From Gemmatimonadota bacterium (GTDB lineage Bacteria; Gemmatimonadota; Gemmatimonadetes; Gemmatimonadales; Gemmatimonadaceae), in assembly GCA_003221805.1 (NCBI GenBank), contig QHUA01000141.1, forward strand, positions 1-51,092: a stretch of 51,092 nt of DNA, given 5' to 3'. The notes beneath the pieces were generated by a model that was given only the letters and a program-made list of their open reading frames with translations, had not been told where the DNA came from and did not search any database. A program made the position numbers and the translations under genes. Below are positions 21,617-46,294 of this stretch, one piece after another (position 1 is the stretch's first letter; each line of letters opens with the position of its first letter).

Positions 21617-22648
21617 ATGAGGTACATCGGAAACAAAACCCGACTCCTAACCTTCATTCTCCGCACACTGGAGAAGGAAAGGATTGCGGTCGGGTCGGTC
21701 CACGACGCCTTCGCGGGCACCGCCAGCGTGAGCAGAGCGCTCAAATCGGAAGGATGGCGCGTGTACTCGAGCGACCTGCTCATGTCGTCGTACGTGTTTC
21801 AGCGCGCGTACGTGGTTGCCGATGCCGCGGATCCTTTGCTGAAGGAAATGGCTGGCGAGCTGGCGCGCGTGGAACCGAAGGTTGGTTTCATCAGTCGACA
21901 CTTCTCCCCGGCGGGCGGGACCACGAGCGCAGGGAGGATGTATTTCACCCCCGAGAATGCAGGGCGCATCGATGCGTCACGCGAGGCGTTGGACGCCTGG
22001 CGAAAGGAGCGGAAGATCGGTGACGACGACTACTACCTGCTCCTTGCCGCCATCATAGAAGGAGCGGACAGAGTCGCTAATACCGCCGGCGTGTACGCGT
22101 CGTACATGAAGCGCTGGCAACCAAATGCGCGCCGCCCCTTTGAGATCGCGCCGGAGGTGCCCATCAAAGGAGCGCAGCCGGCCCGGGCGCATCTAATGGA
22201 TGCGACGGAGGCGGCGAGAAACATCGGCGAGGTCGACTTGCTGTACATCGATCCGCCGTACAACTCCCGCCAGTACGTCGCCTACTACCATATACCTGAG
22301 ATCCTGGCGCGCGGTTGGTCCGATATGGCGCCGGCGATCCGCGGCAAGGTCGGACTGCTGGCCGGGGAGGAGGGAAGGAGCCAGTGGTCGCACGGGCGAC
22401 GCGTGCAAAGGCTCTTTTCGGGACTGTTGGCCGATTCGGCGGCCAGATACGCTCTCGTTAGCTTCAATTCCGAGGGTCACTTGAAGCCGGAAGCGCTGGA
22501 GTCGCTGCTCGCAAAGGCCGCCATCGACGGCAAAGTCTCCCATTTCAATCAGCGGTATCGCCGGTATCGCGCGGATAGTGACCGTGAAGGCAGGCGATAC
22601 CACGCTGACTTTGCCCTCGAGCACCTATATTTGGTCAGGCTCAGGTAG
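21617..22648 (+). CDS. DNA adenine methyltransferase (D12 class, Dam-family N6-adenine MTase)
   Basis: MRYIGNKTRLL N-terminus, DAFAGTASVS (FxGxG, SAM binding), LLYIDPPYNSRQY (DPPY catalytic motif). Confidence 0.85.
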   Translation: MRYIGNKTRLLTFILRTLEKERIAVGSVHDAFAGTASVSRALKSEGWRVYSSDLLMSSYVFQRAYVVADAADPLLKEMAGELARVEPKVGFISRHFSPAGGTTSAGRMYFTPENAGRIDASREALDAWRKERKIGDDDYYLLLAAIIEGADRVANTAGVYASYMKRWQPNARRPFEIAPEVPIKGAQPARAHLMDATEAARNIGEVDLLYIDPPYNSRQYVAYYHIPEILARGWSDMAPAIRGKVGLLAGEEGRSQWSHGRRVQRLFSGLLADSAARYALVSFNSEGHLKPEALESLLAKAAIDGKVSHFNQRYRRYRADSDREGRRYHADFALEHLYLVRLR

Positions 22649-22766
22649 CTTGGTTGCTTCCACAAGTGACTAGTCGTCAGAAGGGCGTAACGGTGATAAG
22701 GTGTTATCCCGTCGCCATTTGGGCCTTTGCACGCGCTGGCAAAGGGGTTACACTAGGCAGGTGAAG

Positions 22767-23378
22767 ATGACAGCCACACCGCTGCAAAATCAGGGTGCTC
22801 AGGTGCTGGGCGCTGGAGGCGCGACGCCGGATGCAGCGGCGCCGCAAATCGATGCCGATCAGGAAGTTATCGCCAAGGTTTTGGCTGGTCACAAGGATGC
22901 GTTTGCGGTTCTGATAACCCGCTACAGCGATCCTCTGTACCGACATGCACTTGGCATGACTGGAAGTCCCGATGTGGCGGAAGACATACTCCAAGCGTCT
23001 TTTATAAAAGCCTATCAGCATCTAGGCGAAGTTCGCGGTCGATTCGATGCGTGGGTTTTTCGAATCGTCGCAAATAGCTGCAAAGATTGGCTCAAGAACA
23101 TTCGGCGAACGCACGTGAGTTACGACGAGGACGATCAGCCCTCGACGTACTCGACGCCGGAAGAAGAGATGGACCGCAACGAGCTGCGTACGGACTTGCA
23201 GTTTGCTCTGGCCAGACTCGCTCCCTCGCTGCGTGAAGCGTTCGTGATGAAGCACGTTGAGGGAAGATCGTACGAGGAGATGGCGCTGTTACTGGAAACG
23301 ACGGTTGGCGCGCTAAAGATGCGAGTGCATCGGGCGCGAGAGGCGCTCCAACAACTGCTCGAGGAGAAGTACGCATGA
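22767..23378 (+). CDS. ECF-type RNA polymerase sigma factor
   Basis: Region 2 (FAVLITRYSDPLYRHALGMTGSPDVAEDILQASFIKAY) and region 4 (REAFVMKHVEGRSYEEMALLLETTVGALKMRVHRAREAL). The start is taken at the ATG at 22767, preceded by aggcagg. Confidence 0.85.
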   Translation: MTATPLQNQGAQVLGAGGATPDAAAPQIDADQEVIAKVLAGHKDAFAVLITRYSDPLYRHALGMTGSPDVAEDILQASFIKAYQHLGEVRGRFDAWVFRIVANSCKDWLKNIRRTHVSYDEDDQPSTYSTPEEEMDRNELRTDLQFALARLAPSLREAFVMKHVEGRSYEEMALLLETTVGALKMRVHRAREALQQLLEEKYA

Positions 23379-23785
23379 TGTTTGATGACGCTGGTTTCGA
23401 GAGAAACGAAAAGATTCCGGGCCGCGAGCCCGCTGAAAGAAAGGACAAGCCCGCCGAGCGGCTTTATGACCGCGAAGTTCCGTTAAACGGATCTACCGGT
23501 CACGGACTCCTGCATGACTGGCTTGATGGCGAAGTCGACGTAATGCGCGCCAGCGAAGTCGAGGGCAAGTCGAAGGTCGAGCTCTGGACGCGGATCAACG
23601 CCGAGAGCGAGATGCTTCGTCGCCGCGTGACGCCGGTTGGCGTTCAGCAGCGTATCATGGCCTCGCTGCCCGATACTCCCGGCACCGCCACCAACTGGTG
23701 GAAGCAGATCACGCCGGTTTCGGCGATCGCAATCACCGTGGCGCTGCTCGCAGTCGGCGCCCTGATCATCCAGGCTCTTCGCTAG
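23375..23785 (+). CDS. putative membrane-anchored anti-sigma factor
   Basis: ATGA overlap with the sigma gene. Single C-terminal TM (VSAIAITVALLAVGALIIQAL). No zf-HC2 motif is seen, so the assignment rests on context only. Confidence 0.5.
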   Translation: MMFDDAGFERNEKIPGREPAERKDKPAERLYDREVPLNGSTGHGLLHDWLDGEVDVMRASEVEGKSKVELWTRINAESEMLRRRVTPVGVQQRIMASLPDTPGTATNWWKQITPVSAIAITVALLAVGALIIQALR

Positions 23786-37572: not shown

Positions 37573-38151
37573 ATGTACGGAGGACGCTGTGGGCCGGGGT
37601 TCGCGTGGGCATTCGGAGCGCGACCGGAAAACTTCGGGTTTGACGCGGGCTCATTCTGGGCGGGACGTGGGAAATCGCGTGGTGGGCCGTTCAGCGGCGG
37701 CAGGATGTTCGATCAGGGCCATCTCAAGTTCGTGATCCTGCGCCTGCTCGACGAGAAGCCGCGTCACGGCTACGAGATCATCAAGGAGATCGAGGATCGG
37801 TTCGGCGGGATGTACTCACCGAGTCCTGGGACAGTCTATCCGACTTTGACGATGCTCGAAGACCTCGGCTACGCGCGTGCGCGACCGGAAGAGGACGGCA
37901 AGAAGATCTACGAGATTACCGACGAAGGCCGAAAGTATCTTGCCGAGAACCAGCCGTTGATCGACGACATCTTCTCCAGGATCGCCGAGTTCGCGGCGAA
38001 CATCTTCGGCGAACCGATGATGGAAGTGCACCGCGGCTTCAAGAACGTTGGTCGCGCGGTGTATGCGTCGAAGAGCTCGCGCACGCCGGAGCAGATCAAA
38101 AAAATCAAGGAGATTCTGGAGCGAGCGGCAACGGAAATTGAAGCAGTCTAG
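37573..38151 (+). CDS. PadR family transcriptional regulator
   Basis: LKFVILRLLDEKPRHGYEIIKEIEDRFGGMYSPSPGTVYPTLTMLEDLGY is a winged HTH of PadR type. An AGGAG RBS is present. Confidence 0.85.
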   Translation: MYGGRCGPGFAWAFGARPENFGFDAGSFWAGRGKSRGGPFSGGRMFDQGHLKFVILRLLDEKPRHGYEIIKEIEDRFGGMYSPSPGTVYPTLTMLEDLGYARARPEEDGKKIYEITDEGRKYLAENQPLIDDIFSRIAEFAANIFGEPMMEVHRGFKNVGRAVYASKSSRTPEQIKKIKEILERAATEIEAV

Positions 38152-40439
38152 GTCCGTGGTCGTAGAAGAAGAATCGCGTGAATTCTGAGCGGGTCAGTCG
38201 AAGCTGGGTTCGACTGGCCCGCTTTTGTTTGGAGTGAGGCAATCGCCCGCAGCCATTCCTCGGGTGGCAGCTCCGATTCAAGCAGGGTCTCGAGATCTCG
38301 CTCGATCGCCGAGCATTGCGGTGAAGTTGCAACTCTCCGCGCCTGAGCGGCGATGGCTAGCCTGGAAGTGCGCAGGTGTGGGGGTGCGCTGTCGATGCAG
38401 GCATCGATGCGGCGGGTGATTTCTTTGCGGTTCAGAGCAGCCGACGCGCCGAGTCCGGCTGCCGCCAACGCCAGCTCGACGCTGAGCCAGTCGGAAATCC
38501 TTCTGATGGTGTGCTCGAGCTGAGGCTGATCCGTCGGTGCCTCGATTACTCCGACGGTGGCACAAACGTCGATCTGTCTGTCGACCTCGATCGACACACC
38601 GTCTGAACTTCCGACCAGCAATTGCGGCGCGTCGTGCACCGATACCGCCGCAACGAAGCCGGGCTCGACCGCTTCCACTGTTGCAACCACGAGAGTCTGG
38701 CTCGTAGTCCCAGTCCTCGAGCAGCGATCGACATGAGCGATTGTAATCCAGCTATCGAGTATGGTGCGCAGTCGTTCGGTTTTTCCGGGTGTGCTCTCGG
38801 TGTCGGTCTCAGAATCTGATGCAGCCGAGTCAGGGAACCCTTCCAGCCTGGGACGGGACGCGCTCGTACCTACGGATTCCTTCGCCAAACGCCATTTGCG
38901 CTGAACGATCGATTCACCGCGCAGCACTTCGTCCGCTGAGCGAGGCGGGCGCAAAGCATGAACGGTCACTTCTCCGTGAAGCGACCCCAACCTCGCTACG
39001 CGCCCGACACGCTGTTCCATGCGAGCGACAGTCCATGGGATGTCGAGATGAATCACAACGTTGGCGTCCTGAAGATTTACTCCTTCACTGAGCAGATCGG
39101 TCGTGAGCAGAAGGTCGATCGCGTCGGCTGCCGATGGCTCGCGCTTCCCGGTGGCACGCGGCGCAAAGCGGGCGATCGCCTCCGATCTCGTCAGGGATCC
39201 GCCTGCCACTCGCGCCCCGTGCGAAGTCAGCATAGCCACCTTCCCACTGCGGACCAGTCGTCGGAATAGCATCGAAACCGTCTCGGCGTACTGGGCAAAG
39301 GCAACGCTTCTGCCGCCCGGATTGGAATTCCTAACCGCCGCGATGATCTGAGCGCGGGCCAGGTCAGCCGTCGATGTCACACAGGATTGGCCGAGAATTC
39401 TTTCCAGGGCCGCGAGATGCGCACGAATTGCGGCGAGCAGCTCTTCATGGTCAGCGATCGGTGCAGAAAGCAGCTCGGCAAATCCGAGCTGCAGCGCACC
39501 TTCGCCGTAGATCCAGATCTCGAGCTCGCGGGCAGTCGGATACGTTCCGGCTTCGAGTGACGCGGATAACGCGGCTGCGCGCGCGATTCTCCTTTTCAGG
39601 GCTTCGTTGAGTGCAGCCTCGCTCGACGACATTTGATGGACGAGGCTTCGACCGATCAGGGCGGCAGCTACTCCACCGTCACGGACAGGCACAGGTGGCG
39701 GAAGTTCCATCAGCTGTTCGACGAGCGAGGGGTCGTCGGGGAGCTCGTGATACTCGATCGGAAGAACGGCGGGAATGCGCAGTCCTTGCTCGAGCTGCTT
39801 CTGCGCGCGTCGAACGACACACAGCGCCAGCTCCGCCGAGGTGAGTGAGTGGGCGCGCGACCCAAGGAATAGCGAGAGAAGAGCTACGAGATCCCCACGC
39901 CGGTTGTGAATTGGAGTCGCGCTCAGCAGCAGCACCTTCGCTCCGCGCACCAGTCGCTCTAAGGCGAAGTATCGGTTTGTGCGTGGATTTCTGACGTGAT
40001 GGGCTTCGTCGATGATGACAAGATCGTAGCCTGGACCGGTCTCGATCTTGTGGTGGCGCGCGCGCGTGTCCGCTCGGCTCAAGGTCTCAAAAGAGACGAA
40101 CGCGGCATCGACACGCGTCGCGTCGAGGGCGTTCTGCCACATCGAAGCCAGTGCGGCAGGAGCAACAACGAGGCGACGCGAGAATCGGCTGGCGATGGCG
40201 ATCGCTACGTACGTCTTGCCCATCCCGACATCGTCGCACAACAACGCTCCGTTGAATTGATCGATGGCAGATTGCAATCGCTCCACTGCCGAACGCTGAT
40301 GCGAATGCAAAGTGATGGATCCGAGTCTGCGGTCGCTCGAAGGCTCGCCGAGGATTAACTGGGCAATGCGCGAGAGGACTGCAGCCCCGGATGTGACTGT
40401 CACGCCGCTGGTCGGATCTAGTCGCAGTCGACACTCCAC
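38148..40439 (-). CDS. SNF2-family (SF2) helicase/translocase with an uncharacterised C-terminal region of about 260 aa
   Basis: DDVGMGKTY (I), VIIDEAHHVRN (II), LLLSATPIHN (III), LLTTDLLSEGVNLQDANVV (V), MEQRVGRVARLG (VI). The GTG start overlaps the upstream MTase gene by 22 nt. Confidence 0.85.
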   Translation of the reverse strand: MECRLRLDPTSGVTVTSGAAVLSRIAQLILGEPSSDRRLGSITLHSHQRSAVERLQSAIDQFNGALLCDDVGMGKTYVAIAIASRFSRRLVVAPAALASMWQNALDATRVDAAFVSFETLSRADTRARHHKIETGPGYDLVIIDEAHHVRNPRTNRYFALERLVRGAKVLLLSATPIHNRRGDLVALLSLFLGSRAHSLTSAELALCVVRRAQKQLEQGLRIPAVLPIEYHELPDDPSLVEQLMELPPPVPVRDGGVAAALIGRSLVHQMSSSEAALNEALKRRIARAAALSASLEAGTYPTARELEIWIYGEGALQLGFAELLSAPIADHEELLAAIRAHLAALERILGQSCVTSTADLARAQIIAAVRNSNPGGRSVAFAQYAETVSMLFRRLVRSGKVAMLTSHGARVAGGSLTRSEAIARFAPRATGKREPSAADAIDLLLTTDLLSEGVNLQDANVVIHLDIPWTVARMEQRVGRVARLGSLHGEVTVHALRPPRSADEVLRGESIVQRKWRLAKESVGTSASRPRLEGFPDSAASDSETDTESTPGKTERLRTILDSWITIAHVDRCSRTGTTSQTLVVATVEAVEPGFVAAVSVHDAPQLLVGSSDGVSIEVDRQIDVCATVGVIEAPTDQPQLEHTIRRISDWLSVELALAAAGLGASAALNRKEITRRIDACIDSAPPHLRTSRLAIAAQARRVATSPQCSAIERDLETLLESELPPEEWLRAIASLQTKAGQSNPASTDPLRIHAILLLRPRT

Positions 40440-43400
40440 GACAGCAGCGGCTGCACTTTTTCGCGATCGATGTGATAAGCCTCGAGCGCCGCAGCGAGCA
40501 GCTCTTCGTCCGGCGGGATGTCGCCCTGCATTCCACGTTCACCGAGGGGCGCGAGAATCTTTCGCGCGCCGTTCCAGCGAGCCGGAACTGGGAGCAGCGC
40601 CATCGTCCAGCCCAGGTAGCGGCGATATCCGCCTCGAGCCGGCTCGGCGATCGCGTTTAGCCAGGCGGCAGCCAGTGGGCCATTGAGGATTGCCGCCAGA
40701 GCGTACGCGTCAGTCAGCGTTCGACAACGGGCGACGTAGCATGTGTTGAGAGCGATGTGCTGCTCGCCCTCGGCGACGACGATTGCGCGTGGTCTGAGTC
40801 CGAAATCCGCCCACACTACGCGAGATCTCTCGGGATTTGCGCTTTCTGTCCGAAACACCGACCACCACAAGCGGCTTTCGTGGAGATCGGTGCGCTTGAT
40901 CAGCGCGTCGCGATAGGGCAACAGCCAGCGGCGCGCAAGCGGCGGCAGTTCGCGCCGAGTCGAGCCGTCGTCGCCGTGCGGCCAAACCAGGTACTCGGAT
41001 CGGCCCACGAGCGTCCATTGCCCGAGCGTCTCGCCGCGAATCACTGGGCGAAGCATCTCGCGCTCGATTTCTCCGACCCGGTCACGGCTGGAAATACGCG
41101 CTATGTCGCCGTCGATCGAATCGACGCGGACAAGATAGGCATCGTTGTAGCCAGTCTTCACGCCGAGTAGCGGACGACCAAACCGCGAAAGGCTAAACGG
41201 CGCGGCCGAACGAGTCAGACAGTCAAACGATTTTCGCACCGGACCGGGAAGAAGGAGCCACGGACTCCCGGGTGTTCCGTCGACCGACAGACGATGCGGC
41301 GGACAACGCCAGGTCCGTGCAGTACCGTTCGATCGAATCGTCACTCTTATCCGCTCGTCGGCAGTTTGGTAAGTCGCGGCGGTGCCCACACTCGTACTGC
41401 TTTCGATCCGACGTCGCGCTACCAGGAGCGACGGATAAACCGCCGCATCGAACTGCGACCGTGACTGCGTGAGATCTTCGATCGAGACGATATCAGCACG
41501 GTCGAGGAGCAGCTCGCGGACTCCGCCACCGGCAAGGGATCGCCACAGCTTGCTCGGCAGCAGATAGGCCAGTGTGCCGCCTGGTCGCAGGAGATCCCAC
41601 GCGCGCTCCACGAACAGCGCCGCCAGATCGATCTGCGCGGCAAAACCTCGTCCCGCTCCAGCGCTCTCGGCACCGCTTTCCCAGGCGGCACGGCGATAGA
41701 CCGTGAATTCCTGTCTCAATCGCCGGCGTGACAATTCGGCAATGCGATGTACGCGAACCCAGGGCGGATTGCCGATGACGATGTCGAATCCACCGGCAGC
41801 GGCAATGTCGGAGAAGTGCGCCGCAAAGGAGAAGGGAAGCGCGGCGCCTTCGCGCAACGCTTTGATTTTGTCTCTGATATCTCGCAGGCCGCGGCGGATT
41901 CCCTCGAGGCGCAGACGTGTCTGGTGATCGGGCGGATGCCGCAGTCCGAACAAGTCTCTGGCACGTACAAACACCAACAGCTCCTTGCGCTGGGCGTTGA
42001 AGCGAACTCTTCGACGCGCCAGGACATCGACGGCGGCGGAGCGCTCGAGCCGGTCAAGAGCGCGCGCCAACGTGAGCTTTCGCGGCCCGGTGGCTCTCAT
42101 GTATCGAGTGCGAAGACTCGCCAGTTTGCGACTACTTCCTATGGTGCCTCGATCGTCGAATGTGGATCCGCTGAGAGAGTCGCCAACGCGGATGTGCCGA
42201 TCGAGATTCGGCAGCGGCGCAATCCGCATTGGATCTGGCTCGTCACTCTCGATGACTATCGAGAGCCAGAGACGGAGCTCGCACAGCCACACCGCCATCG
42301 GATTGAGGTCGACTCCGAAGATGGACGTCGTCAGAACGCGACGGCGAATCTCGGCGAGCGGTCCGGGCTCACCACTCTCCCGACGAAGTAACGCCAGGCG
42401 CTCCAGGATGTGTACCAGGAAAGCGCCGGAGCCGCACGCAGGATCGAGGATCTTGATTCGTTGCAAATCCTTGAGCGAATCCGCCGATTGCTCAGCCAGG
42501 GCAGAATCGAGCGAATGTCGAGTGAGCGATTCGACGAGATCCTGTGGCGTGTAGAACGCGCCACTCCTCTTGCGGTCCTCGGCCGCCATCAGCGCCTCGA
42601 ACGCCTTGCCGAGGATCTCAGGATCGATCGATGCTTCGGACCAATCGGCGGTGTCTTCCCGACCGCTGAACCGATAATGCGACAACAGGGACCCATAAGC
42701 GTCGCCGAAGCATTCGTCGGAGAACGTGCTCGATCGTCGCTGCTTCTCGAGGTGCGATCGCGAAAACAGTCCCCCATTCAGGAACGGAATTCGACCAAAC
42801 TCCCTGGCCCGAGGTGAGCGCGCGCGAATCCGGGTGTTCAACGTGCCGAAGAACAACGGCTCCAGGATTCGTTTTTGATATCGTCCACCCGCCTCCATGC
42901 ACCGGCTCAATCCGTTGGCGAGAAAGGAGAAGTCGCCGTTCAGCCAGCCCTTTGCTTCAAGAAAGGAGAGGAAGATCAGCCGCGAGATGTAGAGCAGCGC
43001 GAGCTCACGTCGCTCGCTGCGTTCGATTCGACCAGTCAGCGAAGCTGAGAGCTCGTTGACTGTTTTGTCCAGCGCGCGGAAGAATCTGTTGGTGATCGCT
43101 TGGCGACCGAGTACGTCGAGCCAGCGAGCATGGGTTAGCAAATCTGATTCGCCACCCACGGAGGCTAGGGTGCACAGAGTCTCGGCGTCGCTCTGGACGA
43201 TCCGATCGCGCCGGCAAATCAGAGACGTTACGCGGACGCGGGAGCCGACAGAGCGCCAGCACAGAATCGCCAGGTCCGCCGGTGCGTGGCGAAAGGCTAC
43301 AACCAGCCACAGCAGCTGCGACGCAGTTCGGGCCAAAGCGTTGGCGACGTGACGGAGCGTCTCCCGCAGCTCGCAGGTCGCGTCGATATCGAGCGCGAGT

Positions 43401-43591
43401 CCGCGCAGCGCGCCGATGGCCTGTGTTATGTGCGCGGATCGCAGATTCGCGGGCAGGCCGAGCGCTGAGACGGCATTCCGATCGAGGGGCAGCAGCGGAT
43501 CTGTGAATCCGAGCTCACTGAGAATCTCCGCGACCCGATCGGGTGAACTTGCGCTGCGCAGGAGGGCGGCGGCGCGCTCGAGACTCTGCAT
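40418..43591 (-). CDS. large gamma-class N6-adenine DNA methyltransferase (Eco57I/MmeI/PglX-like architecture with a TaqI-like C-terminal TRD)
   Basis: IPFLNGGLF, GAFYTPQDLV, ILDPACGSGAFLV (motif I), IVIGNPPWVR (motif IV NPPW), LGVKTGYNDAYLV (TaqI_C-like). Confidence 0.85.
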   Translation of the reverse strand: MQSLERAAALLRSASSPDRVAEILSELGFTDPLLPLDRNAVSALGLPANLRSAHITQAIGALRGLALDIDATCELRETLRHVANALARTASQLLWLVVAFRHAPADLAILCWRSVGSRVRVTSLICRRDRIVQSDAETLCTLASVGGESDLLTHARWLDVLGRQAITNRFFRALDKTVNELSASLTGRIERSERRELALLYISRLIFLSFLEAKGWLNGDFSFLANGLSRCMEAGGRYQKRILEPLFFGTLNTRIRARSPRAREFGRIPFLNGGLFSRSHLEKQRRSSTFSDECFGDAYGSLLSHYRFSGREDTADWSEASIDPEILGKAFEALMAAEDRKRSGAFYTPQDLVESLTRHSLDSALAEQSADSLKDLQRIKILDPACGSGAFLVHILERLALLRRESGEPGPLAEIRRRVLTTSIFGVDLNPMAVWLCELRLWLSIVIESDEPDPMRIAPLPNLDRHIRVGDSLSGSTFDDRGTIGSSRKLASLRTRYMRATGPRKLTLARALDRLERSAAVDVLARRRVRFNAQRKELLVFVRARDLFGLRHPPDHQTRLRLEGIRRGLRDIRDKIKALREGAALPFSFAAHFSDIAAAGGFDIVIGNPPWVRVHRIAELSRRRLRQEFTVYRRAAWESGAESAGAGRGFAAQIDLAALFVERAWDLLRPGGTLAYLLPSKLWRSLAGGGVRELLLDRADIVSIEDLTQSRSQFDAAVYPSLLVARRRIESSTSVGTAATYQTADERIRVTIRSNGTARTWRCPPHRLSVDGTPGSPWLLLPGPVRKSFDCLTRSAAPFSLSRFGRPLLGVKTGYNDAYLVRVDSIDGDIARISSRDRVGEIEREMLRPVIRGETLGQWTLVGRSEYLVWPHGDDGSTRRELPPLARRWLLPYRDALIKRTDLHESRLWWSVFRTESANPERSRVVWADFGLRPRAIVVAEGEQHIALNTCYVARCRTLTDAYALAAILNGPLAAAWLNAIAEPARGGYRRYLGWTMALLPVPARWNGARKILAPLGERGMQGDIPPDEELLAAALEAYHIDREKVQPLLSWSVDCD

Positions 43592-43688
43592 CCGCCGAGC
43601 GTACCCATTGGACGCCCTGCGCTCTGCATCGTTTGTCGGCTATTTAGCGCGAAACGCTGCTACGTCTCGATTTTTTTTCTTCCGCCGA

Positions 43689-45131
43689 TCAGTGCCTGAG
43701 TCTGGCGTTGAGGCTATCAGCCAACCGACGCGCACGGACGTTGGTGGAGTCGAGCTCGGTAGCGCGTCGATACGCATCGCGGGCAGCAGTGGGATGACCG
43801 TCGGCGAGGTACGCATCGCCCATGCTGTCGTAGACGTTTGCGGATGTTGGGTAGGCGGCGATGTTCTCGCGGAAAGCTCTGATGGCGTCCTTGAAGCGTG
43901 CCTGGTTCAGCAGTGAATAACCCAGGTCGTTGAGCAACTTCTCCGGTGTTGCCTCCGGATTTTCTTCCTGGAGCCGGTGGTACTCCGCCATCGCTGCATC
44001 GATTCCGCCACTTCGGAGCTTGCGTGCTATTGAAGCGCGGGCCAGGGCGGACGGAGCGTTGTAGATCTCGTAAACGAGCAGGGCCAGTCCCGCGTGAGAA
44101 CCGGGGAAGATGCTCGAGATTTCGCGGACGACGCCCAGGCCGTTTGCACTGTTGGCGAAGTACACCAGTCCACACTGCCTCTCGATGTCCAACAAGGTGA
44201 AGGCGGTGAAGCCGGAATCGGAGTTGTCGCCATGGTGCGCCAATGCTTTCCCAGTCGAGTCGCTTTCGATCGCCCAGCCCAGTCCCCAGCTGACGCCGGG
44301 AGCGACATCGACCGCCGGCGTTTGCATCAATCGCCAGGTCTCCGGTCGCAAGCCCGCACCCTGCTCAATTGCAACCAAAAAGCGGGCGTAGTCGTTCGCC
44401 GTTGTCTGCAGGCTCGACGGAGCGCGAGCGAAGCGCGGACGCGTCCGCTTCCGCACTTCGCCAAATCGTCCGTGTCCGACTGCGGCGTCATCGTCGAAAC
44501 GCGTCTCCCAGATGAAGCTGCTGCGCGTCATTCCCAGGGGATCGAACACGAGGGTCTTCATCGACTCTGCCAGGGAATGCCCGGTGATCGCTTCGATCGC
44601 CTGGCCAAGCAAAACGAAGCCTTCGCCCGAGTACTGGAAACGCGTCCCGGGCGTGAATGAAAAGCGCAGCGAATCGGAGCCGATTCTCTCGTTCTGCAAG
44701 CCGGTGGTATGCGAGAGCACCATCTTCGCGGTAACGAGATTCCCCAGCGTGTCCCCGCGAAAGTCCGGATAAGAGGTGTAGTTGATAAGCGGCCGATCGA
44801 GATCGAGCTGGCCGGCGTCCACCAGTTTCAGCGCAGCATACGCGATCACCGGTTTACTCAACGACGCCGCCTCGAACACGGTCCGACTGGCACTTACTCG
44901 GCCGCTTGCCGAATCGCGCGAACCGAAGCCGCCGCTCCAGACGACTTTGCCGTCATTGATGATTGCCAGAGCCAAACCCGGTATCATGGCGCTATCCATC
45001 AGGGCCGGCAGGCGCTGCCGCAGCTCTCTTCCCGAATCCGCGACGCAAGCGCTCGCTGGCGTCTGAGCGCGAGCCGCGTTTGGTAACGCGAGCAGGGCCA
45101 CCGCGAATGCCCGCGAGAATCTCGTCGTCAT
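43689..45131 (-). CDS. secreted serine hydrolase (beta-lactamase/PBP4* family) with a C-terminal TPR region
   Basis: The start is taken at the ATG at 45131 (MTTRFSRAFAVALLALPNAARAQ, signal peptide), which overlaps the GT2 stop as ATGA. ASLSKP (SxxK). C-terminal YHRLQEENP...GDAYLADGHPTAARDAYRRATELD is TPR-like. Confidence 0.8.
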   Translation of the reverse strand: MTTRFSRAFAVALLALPNAARAQTPASACVADSGRELRQRLPALMDSAMIPGLALAIINDGKVVWSGGFGSRDSASGRVSASRTVFEAASLSKPVIAYAALKLVDAGQLDLDRPLINYTSYPDFRGDTLGNLVTAKMVLSHTTGLQNERIGSDSLRFSFTPGTRFQYSGEGFVLLGQAIEAITGHSLAESMKTLVFDPLGMTRSSFIWETRFDDDAAVGHGRFGEVRKRTRPRFARAPSSLQTTANDYARFLVAIEQGAGLRPETWRLMQTPAVDVAPGVSWGLGWAIESDSTGKALAHHGDNSDSGFTAFTLLDIERQCGLVYFANSANGLGVVREISSIFPGSHAGLALLVYEIYNAPSALARASIARKLRSGGIDAAMAEYHRLQEENPEATPEKLLNDLGYSLLNQARFKDAIRAFRENIAAYPTSANVYDSMGDAYLADGHPTAARDAYRRATELDSTNVRARRLADSLNARLRH

Positions 45132-46294
45132 TGCGAGATGTAAGTTCGTCCGTTCCAGGTTACTCTCCTGCCGCGAATCACTGCAGTAAAGAAGATGTAA
45201 AGCAGCACCAGTGCGCCCAGCGGATAAGCGAGGGCGTAAAGTGGATTCTCGCCAATCGTGACGTAAACAACGATCCACCACAATAGCGTCGCGGCGCAGG
45301 ATATTAGCGCCCACAGTATCGTGTTGCTGGCGGTTCCCATTCCCAACGCCCAAAGCACCAGCGCGAGCGGCGGCAACAGCTCGAGCAAAGGCGGCAGCAA
45401 CAGCGCCAATGGAAGGATGCTCCGTCCGATCTTGCCGAATGGAACTGCGTCCAATCCGCCGGCAAATGCGTTCTTGCGCCAGCCGGTGACGATCTCGCTG
45501 AGGGACGCGTACATCCGCGTCGATAATTGTTTGACGCCGAGCATCAGCACGACGCGCTTTCGCGCCGCGAAAAATCGTTGTGCCAGCAGGAGATCCTCTG
45601 CGACCGACGAGCGAACACTGCCGTGACCGCCGATGGCGTCGTAGCTCGTGCGCCTGACGAAGATGCACTGTCCGTTTGCGATCTTGTTGCCGACGCGCGG
45701 TGATTGGTTGACGGATTCGGTCCCGCCGTAGCGCATCGACAGCACGGTGAACATCTGCGGCTGGACCAGTTTCTCCCAGAATCCGCCCAGCTCCTGCCTG
45801 CCGGCGACGGAAAACAGATCGGCAGCGGTTCTGCGCATGGCGTTGACCGATCGTGTCACCAGGTCGGGGGCGTGAACGGTGTCCGCATCGGTGAATTGCA
45901 GGATCTCGCCGTGCGCGACTTTCGCACCGGTCGCGCACGCCCACTGCTTTCCAAACCAACCGTCCGGTAGTGGAGCGTTTCTGACGACTCTGAGCCGCCG
46001 ATCTGAAGCCGCAGCTTTGCGAGCGATGTCGGCAGTGCCATCACTCGACGAATCGTCGACGACGAGCACCTCGAGCTGCGGATAGTTCGTCGATAGGATC
46101 GATGTCACACAACGCGCGATGTTGTGTGCTTCGTTGCGTGCGGGAACGATGACCGTTACGAGTGGTGGATTTTCGGGGATGCTACCGCTCTCGTCGTCGA
46201 GCGAGCGCGAGTGACGCAGCCGGATGTAGGTGATTAACGGAGGGATGATCCACGGTGTAGACCAAAGGAGTGGGGCGATCAGACTCTGGTTCAC
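45128..46294 (-). CDS. family 2 glycosyltransferase with C-terminal TM segments
   Basis: VTVIVPARNEAHNI, VVDDSSSDGT, FTDADT (DxD), GWFGKQWAC, then four hydrophobic C-terminal segments. Confidence 0.85.
   Translation of the reverse strand: MNQSLIAPLLWSTPWIIPPLITYIRLRHSRSLDDESGSIPENPPLVTVIVPARNEAHNIARCVTSILSTNYPQLEVLVVDDSSSDGTADIARKAAASDRRLRVVRNAPLPDGWFGKQWACATGAKVAHGEILQFTDADTVHAPDLVTRSVNAMRRTAADLFSVAGRQELGGFWEKLVQPQMFTVLSMRYGGTESVNQSPRVGNKIANGQCIFVRRTSYDAIGGHGSVRSSVAEDLLLAQRFFAARKRVVLMLGVKQLSTRMYASLSEIVTGWRKNAFAGGLDAVPFGKIGRSILPLALLLPPLLELLPPLALVLWALGMGTASNTILWALISCAATLLWWIVVYVTIGENPLYALAYPLGALVLLYIFFTAVIRGRRVTWNGRTYISQ

Follow-up and report, generated by a model that had tools for sequence, protein, structure and literature searches.

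A methyltransferase–SNF2 ATPase gene pair without a detectable nuclease is a fixed chromosomal feature of Gemmatimonadales

Combinations of a DNA methyltransferase (MTase) with an SNF2 ATPase are known, to our knowledge, only within mobile multi-gene defence systems (DISARM, type 3 BREX and the BREX-related systems including MANTIS). The same two activities are found here alone, nuclease-free and chromosomally fixed in an abundant, little-studied soil phylum. The window, as the whole 51,092-nt stretch under analysis is called (Gemmatimonadota bacterium, contig QHUA01000141.1), carries on its minus strand a gene for a gamma-class N6-adenine MTase with its own target recognition domain (TRD) at 40418–43591 (1057 amino acids (aa), ATG start) and a gene for an SNF2-family ATPase/translocase, hereafter the helicase, at 38148–40439 (763 aa, GTG start). 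Both coordinate pairs include the stop codon, and features below are given in window positions. The pair is vertically inherited and is a fixed chromosomal feature of Gemmatimonadales, and the evidence favours a fixed nuclease-free variant of MTase-plus-SNF2 systems over a mobile defence island in which an effector is hidden. Tentatively, at a little under an even chance, the pair is read as a nuclease-free ‘writer plus motor’ module serving the host chromosome. A preliminary description of the window had proposed a minimal defence or epigenetic module; a real, conserved and unassigned pair emerges from the present analysis, with the epigenetic half of that proposal better supported and the defence half weakened.

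The inheritance of the pair is documented at several depths. Both proteins have hundreds of orthologues (56–95% identity) in Gemmatimonadaceae metagenome-assembled genomes (MAGs) and soil metagenomes, and loci whose MTases are 66% and 90% identical to that of the window have the same neighbours on both sides. Occupancy was assessed by scanning metagenome contigs with the protein of the flanking GT2 glycosyltransferase gene, which yielded 80 loci (GT2 identity 72–100%); the MTase is present in 34/34 of those having at least 2.5 kb downstream, a sample picked via one flanking gene in one clade, and the helicase and PadR genes come next wherever the contig extends far enough. A family alignment searched against the GTDB species genomes likewise gave 80 loci, and the SNF2 gene lies immediately downstream in every one that has at least 29% MTase identity and enough DNA. 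Adjacent pairs were found in Gemmatimonadaceae, other Gemmatimonadales, Thermoanaerobaculia, another Acidobacteriota MAG, Myxococcales, a deltaproteobacterium and an unclassified MAG, so that the neighbourhood search proposed in the preliminary description shows the homologues to be conserved as an adjacent pair. Within Gemmatimonadales, loci at 33–36% MTase identity still have the GT2, LD-carboxypeptidase, hydrolase and NUDIX genes upstream, and synteny is therefore order-deep. In Thermoanaerobaculia the pair is likewise conserved (MTase identity 57–69% between species), and in Myxococcales, the deltaproteobacterium and the unclassified MAG it is flanked by ordinary metabolic or housekeeping genes. 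A mobile-element origin was considered and rejected: the plasmid relatives are distant and partial (no more than 31% identical where they align, with no megablast plasmid match), a protein-level search found no relatives in phages, and the guanine-plus-cytosine content of the pair is the same as that of its flanks.

The sequence of the pair has also evolved in step with its surroundings. Between the window and its 90%-identical relative, the synonymous divergence (dS) is 0.39–0.44 for the pair versus 0.30–0.42 for the neighbours, and the ratio of nonsynonymous to synonymous divergence (dN/dS) is 0.14 for the MTase and 0.21 for the helicase, every subdomain lying below 0.2. Defence MTases usually vary and shuffle their TRD more than any other part. 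In the MTase of the window, the TRD together with the C-terminal tail occupies residues 721–1057 (40421–41431, minus strand), and the mean pairwise identity of the TRD among orthologues is 0.65 versus 0.71 for the catalytic domain, the two identities being correlated over all pairs (r=0.92). No pair of the orthologue alignment has a swapped TRD, and the variable part is confined to a loop (residues 721–750). Under a specificity arms race, the TRD would not be expected to keep pace with the catalytic domain in this way. The TRD had earlier been called TaqI-like; a weak match to TaqI_C exists (E-value 0.022), and the stronger match is to the TRD of M.BseCI in the PDB (1.2e-9, residues 777–1003). 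With housekeeping neighbours, one syntenic site occupied in the whole sample, dS as in the neighbours and an unshuffled TRD, the pair does not sit in the kind of defence island considered earlier. The MTase has instead the locus and the lack of a nuclease that mark a lineage-conserved orphan DNA methyltransferase, judged by its full occupancy, its order-level synteny and negative nuclease searches over the sampled set.

The preliminary description had suggested that an effector might be hidden in the unassigned domains of the two proteins and had proposed a fold search of their AlphaFold models. This search gives no nuclease fold in the MTase N-terminus or the helicase C-terminus, and the suggestion is left unsupported, there being no fold match and no invariant catalytic residue in either domain and the one in the helicase being dispensable. 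The N-terminal alpha/beta domain of the MTase (residues 1–150; 43142–43591, minus strand), in which no nuclease is recognisable, was modelled over residues 1–190 with AlphaFold2 (AF2) from 66 sequences, with a predicted local distance difference test (pLDDT) score of 91.4. Foldseek found no credible neighbour of this model in the PDB (best query-normalized template modelling score, TMq, 0.25–0.33) or in BFVD, TM staying below 0.4. Residues 1–130 hold no invariant Asp, Glu or Lys across 31 or 66 orthologues, and type IIG profiles align to the MTase only from about residue 151 on. The domain is the least conserved part of the MTase (mean pairwise identity 0.55, and 0.20 in the wider family) and is under purifying selection (dN/dS 0.12). 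With a confident model and only chance-level Foldseek matches, a hidden nuclease in residues 1–190 was rejected as far as these tools show. The C-terminal accessory domain of the helicase (residues 501–763; 38151–38939, minus strand) is lineage-specific and consists of a small beta-sheet followed by a helical bundle. Its AF2 model (residues 490–763, pLDDT 82, the first ~55 residues poorly modelled) has no Foldseek match in the PDB (best E-value 0.6), and the region has no Pfam or PADLOC match, so a nuclease or effector was rejected here too. Hydrophobic residues and Arg make up most of its invariant positions, the orthologue alignment shows no conserved catalytic acidic or lysine residues, and the domain is absent from the partner helicases of Thermoanaerobaculia, which have 527–577 aa.

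Both enzymes appear intact by their motifs, all of those quoted in the preliminary description being present in the translations. The MTase carries RIPFLNGGLF, ILDPACGSGAFLV (motif I), IGNPPWVR (motif IV) and GVKTGYNDAYLV; motif I (D383-PACGSGAF, residues 383–391) and motif IV (N608-PPW, residues 608–611) are invariant in 31 orthologues and 55 wider relatives. Both motifs lie in the catalytic domain (residues 331–720; 41432–42601, minus strand). Pfam recognises Eco57I (1.3e-22, 81 bits against a cut-off of 25), N6_Mtase and MmeI_Mtase, and the order of motif I N-terminal to motif IV, the Eco57I/N6_Mtase domain and the C-terminal TRD are those of a gamma-class N6-adenine DNA methyltransferase. 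Ahead of the catalytic domain, a helical spacer that includes the IPFLNGGLF block (residues 151–330; 42602–43141, minus strand) is the best-conserved region of the protein; it resembles DUF7814 (Pfam, 1e-6) and, weakly, MmeI_hel (0.004), and the PADLOC type IIG model PDLC03601 aligns over residues 151–329. Sequence matches in the PDB over residues 314–444 are CamA, MmeI, BsaXI, PglX/BrxX and DrdV. The type IIG/PglX-like architecture proposed earlier, with no recognisable nuclease, thus holds. The helicase carries GMGKTY, DEAHH, SAT and QRVGRVARLG, and the 31 orthologues show no variation in its motifs Q, I (GMGKT), II (DEAHH), III (SAT) and VI (QRVGRxxR). It is an SNF2-family ATPase of superfamily 2 (SF2) by its complete helicase motif set (Q, I, Ia, II DExH, III, IV, V and VI) and by its Pfam domains, SNF2-rel_dom (4.8e-15) and Helicase_C (2.1e-15), both past their cut-offs, with ResIII in addition; the Sulfolobus SNF2 protein and RapA are its sequence matches in the PDB. 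Only ~40 aa precede motif Q, and there is no N-terminal phospholipase D (PLD) domain.

The arrangement of the two open reading frames is exactly as first described. They overlap by 22 nt (40418–40439, minus strand), which requires GTG at 40439 as the helicase start; a later in-frame GTG at 40403 would abolish the overlap. Since the helicase N-terminus read from 40439 (M/V-E-R-R-L-R-L) is kept in the alignment of orthologues, and since tblastn places helicase residue 1 about 18 nt ahead of the end of the MTase gene in many related loci, the overlap is both real and conserved, and it measures 4 nt in L164, which is more distantly related. The co-expression proposed from the overlap accords with these results: read from the sequence, the overlap is one of translational coupling, it is conserved, and the genes are adjacent in relatives with at least 29% MTase identity and enough DNA.

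In the mechanism proposed for the module, the MTase would recognise a specific, probably short asymmetric DNA sequence via its own TRD and methylate adenine at N6. The SNF2 ATPase, made in fixed proportion to it via the 22-nt overlapping start, would load or move the MTase by ATP-driven translocation or remodelling, or would open protein-covered chromosomal DNA, with the MTase N-terminal domain and the helicase C-terminal domain as candidate coupling surfaces. The module would probably have descended from restriction-like systems pairing a related MTase with a PLD-nuclease-SNF2 helicase and, after loss of the nuclease, may have become a lineage-conserved host function in epigenetic marking or genome maintenance, like CamA, Dam and CcrM. 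Physical coupling, ATP-assisted methylation and a host-directed role are what we infer for the pair. By analogy, MANTIS, in which methylation requires the MtsA ATPase (bioRxiv 10.64898/2026.09.23.753747), may be taken as a precedent for ATPase-dependent methylation. If the motor is needed for methylation, the pair would offer a simple two-protein model for ATP-driven DNA methyltransferase loading and would be the first conserved ‘orphan’ bacterial MTase with a dedicated remodeller.

The origin of the module is suggested by its most distant relatives. A representative search found ~2000 cluster representatives with E-values below 1e-30, all of the same architecture and with a variable N-terminal domain of 130–200 aa. 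The most distant genome matches (23–28% identity) come from Aphanothece, Sulfurovum and a deltaproteobacterium, and the SNF2 helicases linked to them have ~1050–1100 aa and start with a PLDc_2 (HKD) nuclease domain; in locus coordinates, this linkage is seen at L063 10960–16088, L067 4208–7345 and 10613–12715, and L075 471–3746, an AAA_15 or SMC-like ATPase being also linked in L063 and L067. Plasmid copies of the distant relatives lie in variable clusters, one of them beside an integrase. The simplest reading of these sequences is that the clade of the window would be a nuclease-free derivative of an MTase plus PLD-SNF2 restriction-like system. The gene set of MTase and PLD-SNF2 helicase itself looks restriction-like, and the profile and literature searches made here gave it no system name. 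A further-reaching proposal, which is speculative and should be regarded as doubtful, is that a core ‘epigenetic writer plus chromatin-remodeller-type motor’ exists in Gemmatimonadales and, independently, in Thermoanaerobaculia and some Myxococcota, in which MTase activity on the chromosome would depend on the SNF2 translocase. It would be a prokaryotic counterpart of the eukaryotic DDM1/LSH-assisted DNA methylation, domesticated from a PLD-SNF2 restriction system by nuclease loss.

Several points weigh against a module devoted to the host chromosome. Some restriction-modification systems are species-core, so that vertical inheritance is compatible with defence, and, as BREX and DISARM demonstrate, defence by methylation need not involve an obvious nuclease. 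Occupancy was sampled in one clade, at loci picked by a single flanking gene, and the sample amounts to less than a full genome census. A new nuclease fold in the two unassigned domains may lie beyond the reach of the negative searches, and the frameshifted genes of a few assemblies could reflect occasional decay. The nearest profile matches, moreover, are all defence proteins. The PADLOC run proposed in the preliminary description places the MTase closest to REase_MTase_IIG (5.7e-47, residues 363–903), then DrmMI (7e-29) and PglX (2e-21), and the helicase closest to DpdE (5e-29) and DrmD (1e-23).

These matches argue for an anti-phage or anti-plasmid system, in which the MTase would mark self and the complex would block unmethylated DNA without cutting, would recruit a nuclease encoded elsewhere, or would contain a new nuclease fold; the non-cutting route could be a BREX-like exclusion or a motor that strips replication or transcription complexes. 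This explanation has a real, if clearly minority, chance of being right, and it stays a serious one because every detectable relative of known role is a defence protein. It is also favoured by the clearly restriction-like character of the distant relatives, near which a PLD-SNF2 helicase, an AAA ATPase and in some cases an integrase are encoded, and by the two domains that have no assignment. In addition, the order of MTase then SNF2 helicase gene is shared with type 3 BREX and BREX-related systems (PMC12839542). Yet it has to accommodate full occupancy of one syntenic site with order-level synteny, surroundings free of defence or mobility genes in all lineages examined, a TRD that is not diversified, and accessory domains without conserved catalytic residues, one of which, in the helicase, is dispensable in Thermoanaerobaculia; PglZ, BrxC/DUF499 and DrmA/B, moreover, are all absent. 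Should the pair defend without a nuclease, it would become a minimal model of BREX-like non-degradative exclusion.

That the two proteins act independently, as an ordinary orphan MTase and a RapA-like transcription or repair factor sharing an operon, is improbable. RapA is among the best solved-structure sequence matches of the helicase, and partnerless conserved orphan MTases such as CamA are common. However, the helicase has no RapA Tudor-like N-terminal domains, only ~40 aa preceding its motif Q; the genes remain adjacent, with overlapping or abutting frames, across several phyla and down to ~29% MTase identity while their surroundings change, and the nuclease-bearing relatives likewise retain the MTase-SNF2 linkage. 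Independence and decay are both made less likely by the deep conservation of adjacency and of catalytic motifs. A decaying remnant of a restriction-modification-like system, its nuclease lost and the pair on its way out, is very improbable, for although the PLD domain of the distant relatives is absent and frameshifts interrupt the helicase or MTase in L001/L002, L022 and L024, these occur mostly in MAG assemblies that may be long-read and indel-prone, the dN/dS values given above are low in both genes and in all subdomains, neither enzyme shows variation in its catalytic motifs across 31 orthologues and the wider family, and the pair is retained over order-level divergence. In locus coordinates, the frameshifts split the helicase in L001 (13363–15379), L002 (5285–7301) and L022 (11111–13400) and the MTase in L024 (8001–11509). 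L022 and L024 are MAG contigs of 0.7–1.1 Mb that may be long-read; the frameshifts in these four loci may be assembly errors or real decay.

The surroundings of the pair are those of an ordinary chromosome. On one side lie a gene for a PAS histidine kinase and a convergent PadR gene, which shares 4 nt with the helicase gene at their 3′ ends; on the other, genes for a beta-lactamase-family/TPR protein, the GT2 glycosyltransferase, an LD-carboxypeptidase, a hydrolase and a NUDIX protein. These flanking genes are housekeeping, and the rest of the window is metabolic except for an orphan Dam-type MTase. The absence of known defence partner genes nearby, noted in the preliminary description, was confirmed in the window flanks: no brx, pglZ, BrxC/DUF499, drmA/B/C, hsdR/S or Res-type nuclease gene was found in the window or in the orthologous loci. 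Three candidates for a third conserved gene were examined and rejected. PadR is constant in the closest clade only and is absent from L164; the beta-lactamase/TPR gene is variable between GT2 and the MTase; and the ~470-aa gene that follows the pair in Thermoanaerobaculia encodes an NtrC-type regulator with a housekeeping role. Among L084–L163, the beta-lactamase-family/TPR gene (43689–45140 in the window, minus strand) is full-length, reduced to the TPR part alone or absent, while the pair is constant. In L042, L044, L049, L051 and L079 (four Thermoanaerobaculia, and the Acidobacteriota MAG L044), where the helicase has 527–577 aa, an NtrC-type sigma-54 response regulator (82–89% identical) is always close. 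In one soil metagenome contig (L084, Ga0066700_10001934), the GT2, beta-lactamase/TPR, MTase and helicase proteins are 100% identical to those of the window and PadR is 99% identical, which indicates that the window comes from a soil Gemmatimonadaceae population.

Upstream of the MTase gene, a 97-nt gap contains a conserved non-coding element (43598–43663, minus strand). Its core, CAAACGATG, lies at 43627–43635, and a −10-like TAnnCT (TACGCT here) lies at 43598–43603, 6 nt from the start codon. The layout is nGC-N5-TTCGC...AGCC-NN-CAAACGATG, ~21 variable nt and TAnnCT, with fixed spacing to the start codon. The element is kept in 24 aligned loci whose MTases are 59–100% identical, whether the beta-lactamase/TPR or the GT2 gene is upstream, and its motif occurs once in the window. 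RNAalifold predicts no consensus pairs in the aligned loci. By its position and conservation, the element is a putative promoter or operator of the operon itself, possibly giving a leaderless mRNA.

Other features of the window were noted in passing. A strong terminator-like hairpin (38187–38224, plus strand; 16-bp stem and T-run) lies directly past the padR stop codon, within the 3′ coding region of the helicase. The Dam-type MTase mentioned above, of the D12/Dam class of adenine MTases (21617–22648, plus strand), has no adjacent restriction gene and is the second apparently orphan MTase of the window. The gene after it (22701–23378, plus strand) resembles, by sequence alone and with no profile search, one for a sigma factor of the extracytoplasmic function (ECF) type, and the small open reading frame that follows (23375–23785) may encode an anti-sigma factor.

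Compared with known systems, the pair stands outside all those described, as the preliminary description had supposed. NCBIfam scores lie far under the curated cut-offs for the PglX models (35–71 bits against 400–900, with 71 against 400 for one of them), the PLD anti-phage protein (88 against 1100), the DrmD equivalogs (104 and 72 against 610 and 950) and DpdE (121 against 500), and the profile similarities are restricted to generic catalytic cores. Membership in BREX, DISARM, Dpd, Zorya, Hma or MANTIS was rejected on this basis, and no account of this two-gene module turned up in the literature searches. Type IIG/IIL enzymes (Eco57I, MmeI, DrdV) and BREX PglX share with the MTase the order of motif I before NPPW, the helical spacer, a C-terminal TaqI/BseCI-like TRD and a length of ~1000–1100 aa. 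However, type IIG/IIL enzymes have a PD-(D/E)xK N-terminus in the same polypeptide, for which profile, fold and residues give no sign in the window MTase, and the latter, unlike these enzymes, is obligatorily paired with an SNF2 ATPase. BREX requires PglX together with PglZ and BrxC (plus either BrxA/B and BrxL or BrxHI/HII), whereas the flanks of the pair and of the orthologous loci hold housekeeping genes only. The clusters of an Eco57I-like MTase with a PLD(HKD)-SNF2 protein have a homologous MTase (23–28% identity) with the same domain order and SNF2 linkage. Known effectors of this PLD-SNF2 type are MANTIS MtsD and the ‘phospholipase D-like anti-phage protein’ NF042964, the latter matched by the window helicase over the helicase part only (6.5e-25). 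In contrast to these clusters, the window helicase has no PLD domain, and its locus has no AAA/SMC-like ATPase and is chromosomally fixed rather than a variable island.

The likeness to type III systems and to DISARM seen earlier exists at the superfamily level and does not extend beyond it. Class 1 DISARM also has an adenine MTase of the same superfamily (DrmMI) and an SNF2 helicase (DrmD), but its core of DrmA, DrmB (DUF1998) and DrmC (PLD) is absent from all loci. Type III and ISP (LlaGI/LlaBIII) systems share a sequence-specific MTase with a TRD and an SF2 motor, the order of MTase then helicase and a coupled translation like that of mod-res. Type III systems, though, combine a Res PD-(D/E)xK nuclease with a beta-class Mod, whereas the pair has a gamma-class MTase with a C-terminal TRD, no nuclease, and an SNF2-type helicase whose likeness to Res is confined to the generic ResIII domain; type ISP enzymes are single polypeptides with an Mrr-like nuclease, whereas the pair consists of two polypeptides without an Mrr domain. 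MANTIS (Gao_RL, BREX-related type 2) and Hma (BREX-related type 1) are likewise methylation-based and combine an MTase with an SF2/SNF2 helicase. At their centre stands a DUF499 AAA+ ATPase, of which none is found in the window or related loci, and their helicases carry PLD or PD-(D/E)xK nucleases, HmaA being matched over helicase motif VI only; MANTIS MtsC is an alpha-class DPPY MTase and HmaB a DUF1156 protein, unlike the gamma-class MTase of the window. With Dpd, the similarity is limited to DpdE over generic helicase stretches, and no dpd genes are nearby.

The methylome of Gemmatirosa kalamazoonensis contains, besides RGATCY and a type I motif, the asymmetric N6-methyladenine (m6A) motif ATGCAC, which is unassigned (PMC3974934). 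By analogy, an asymmetric hexamer would be the expected product of an MTase of this architecture. A homologue search and cluster look-up for orthologues in cultured, methylome-typed strains gave MAG and metagenome proteins only, and ATGCAC is a tentative lead. Parallels to a host-directed module are found among lineage-conserved orphan MTases. CamA of C. difficile is a lineage-fixed orphan MTase of the same superfamily (PMC8187626), and its MTase domain is a detectable PDB relative of the window MTase (1.5e-5). Like CamA, Dam and CcrM, the window MTase has no cognate nuclease, occurs in all sampled members of its lineage and has a stable TRD; unlike any of these, none of which is coupled to an ATPase motor, it is paired with an SNF2 ATPase.

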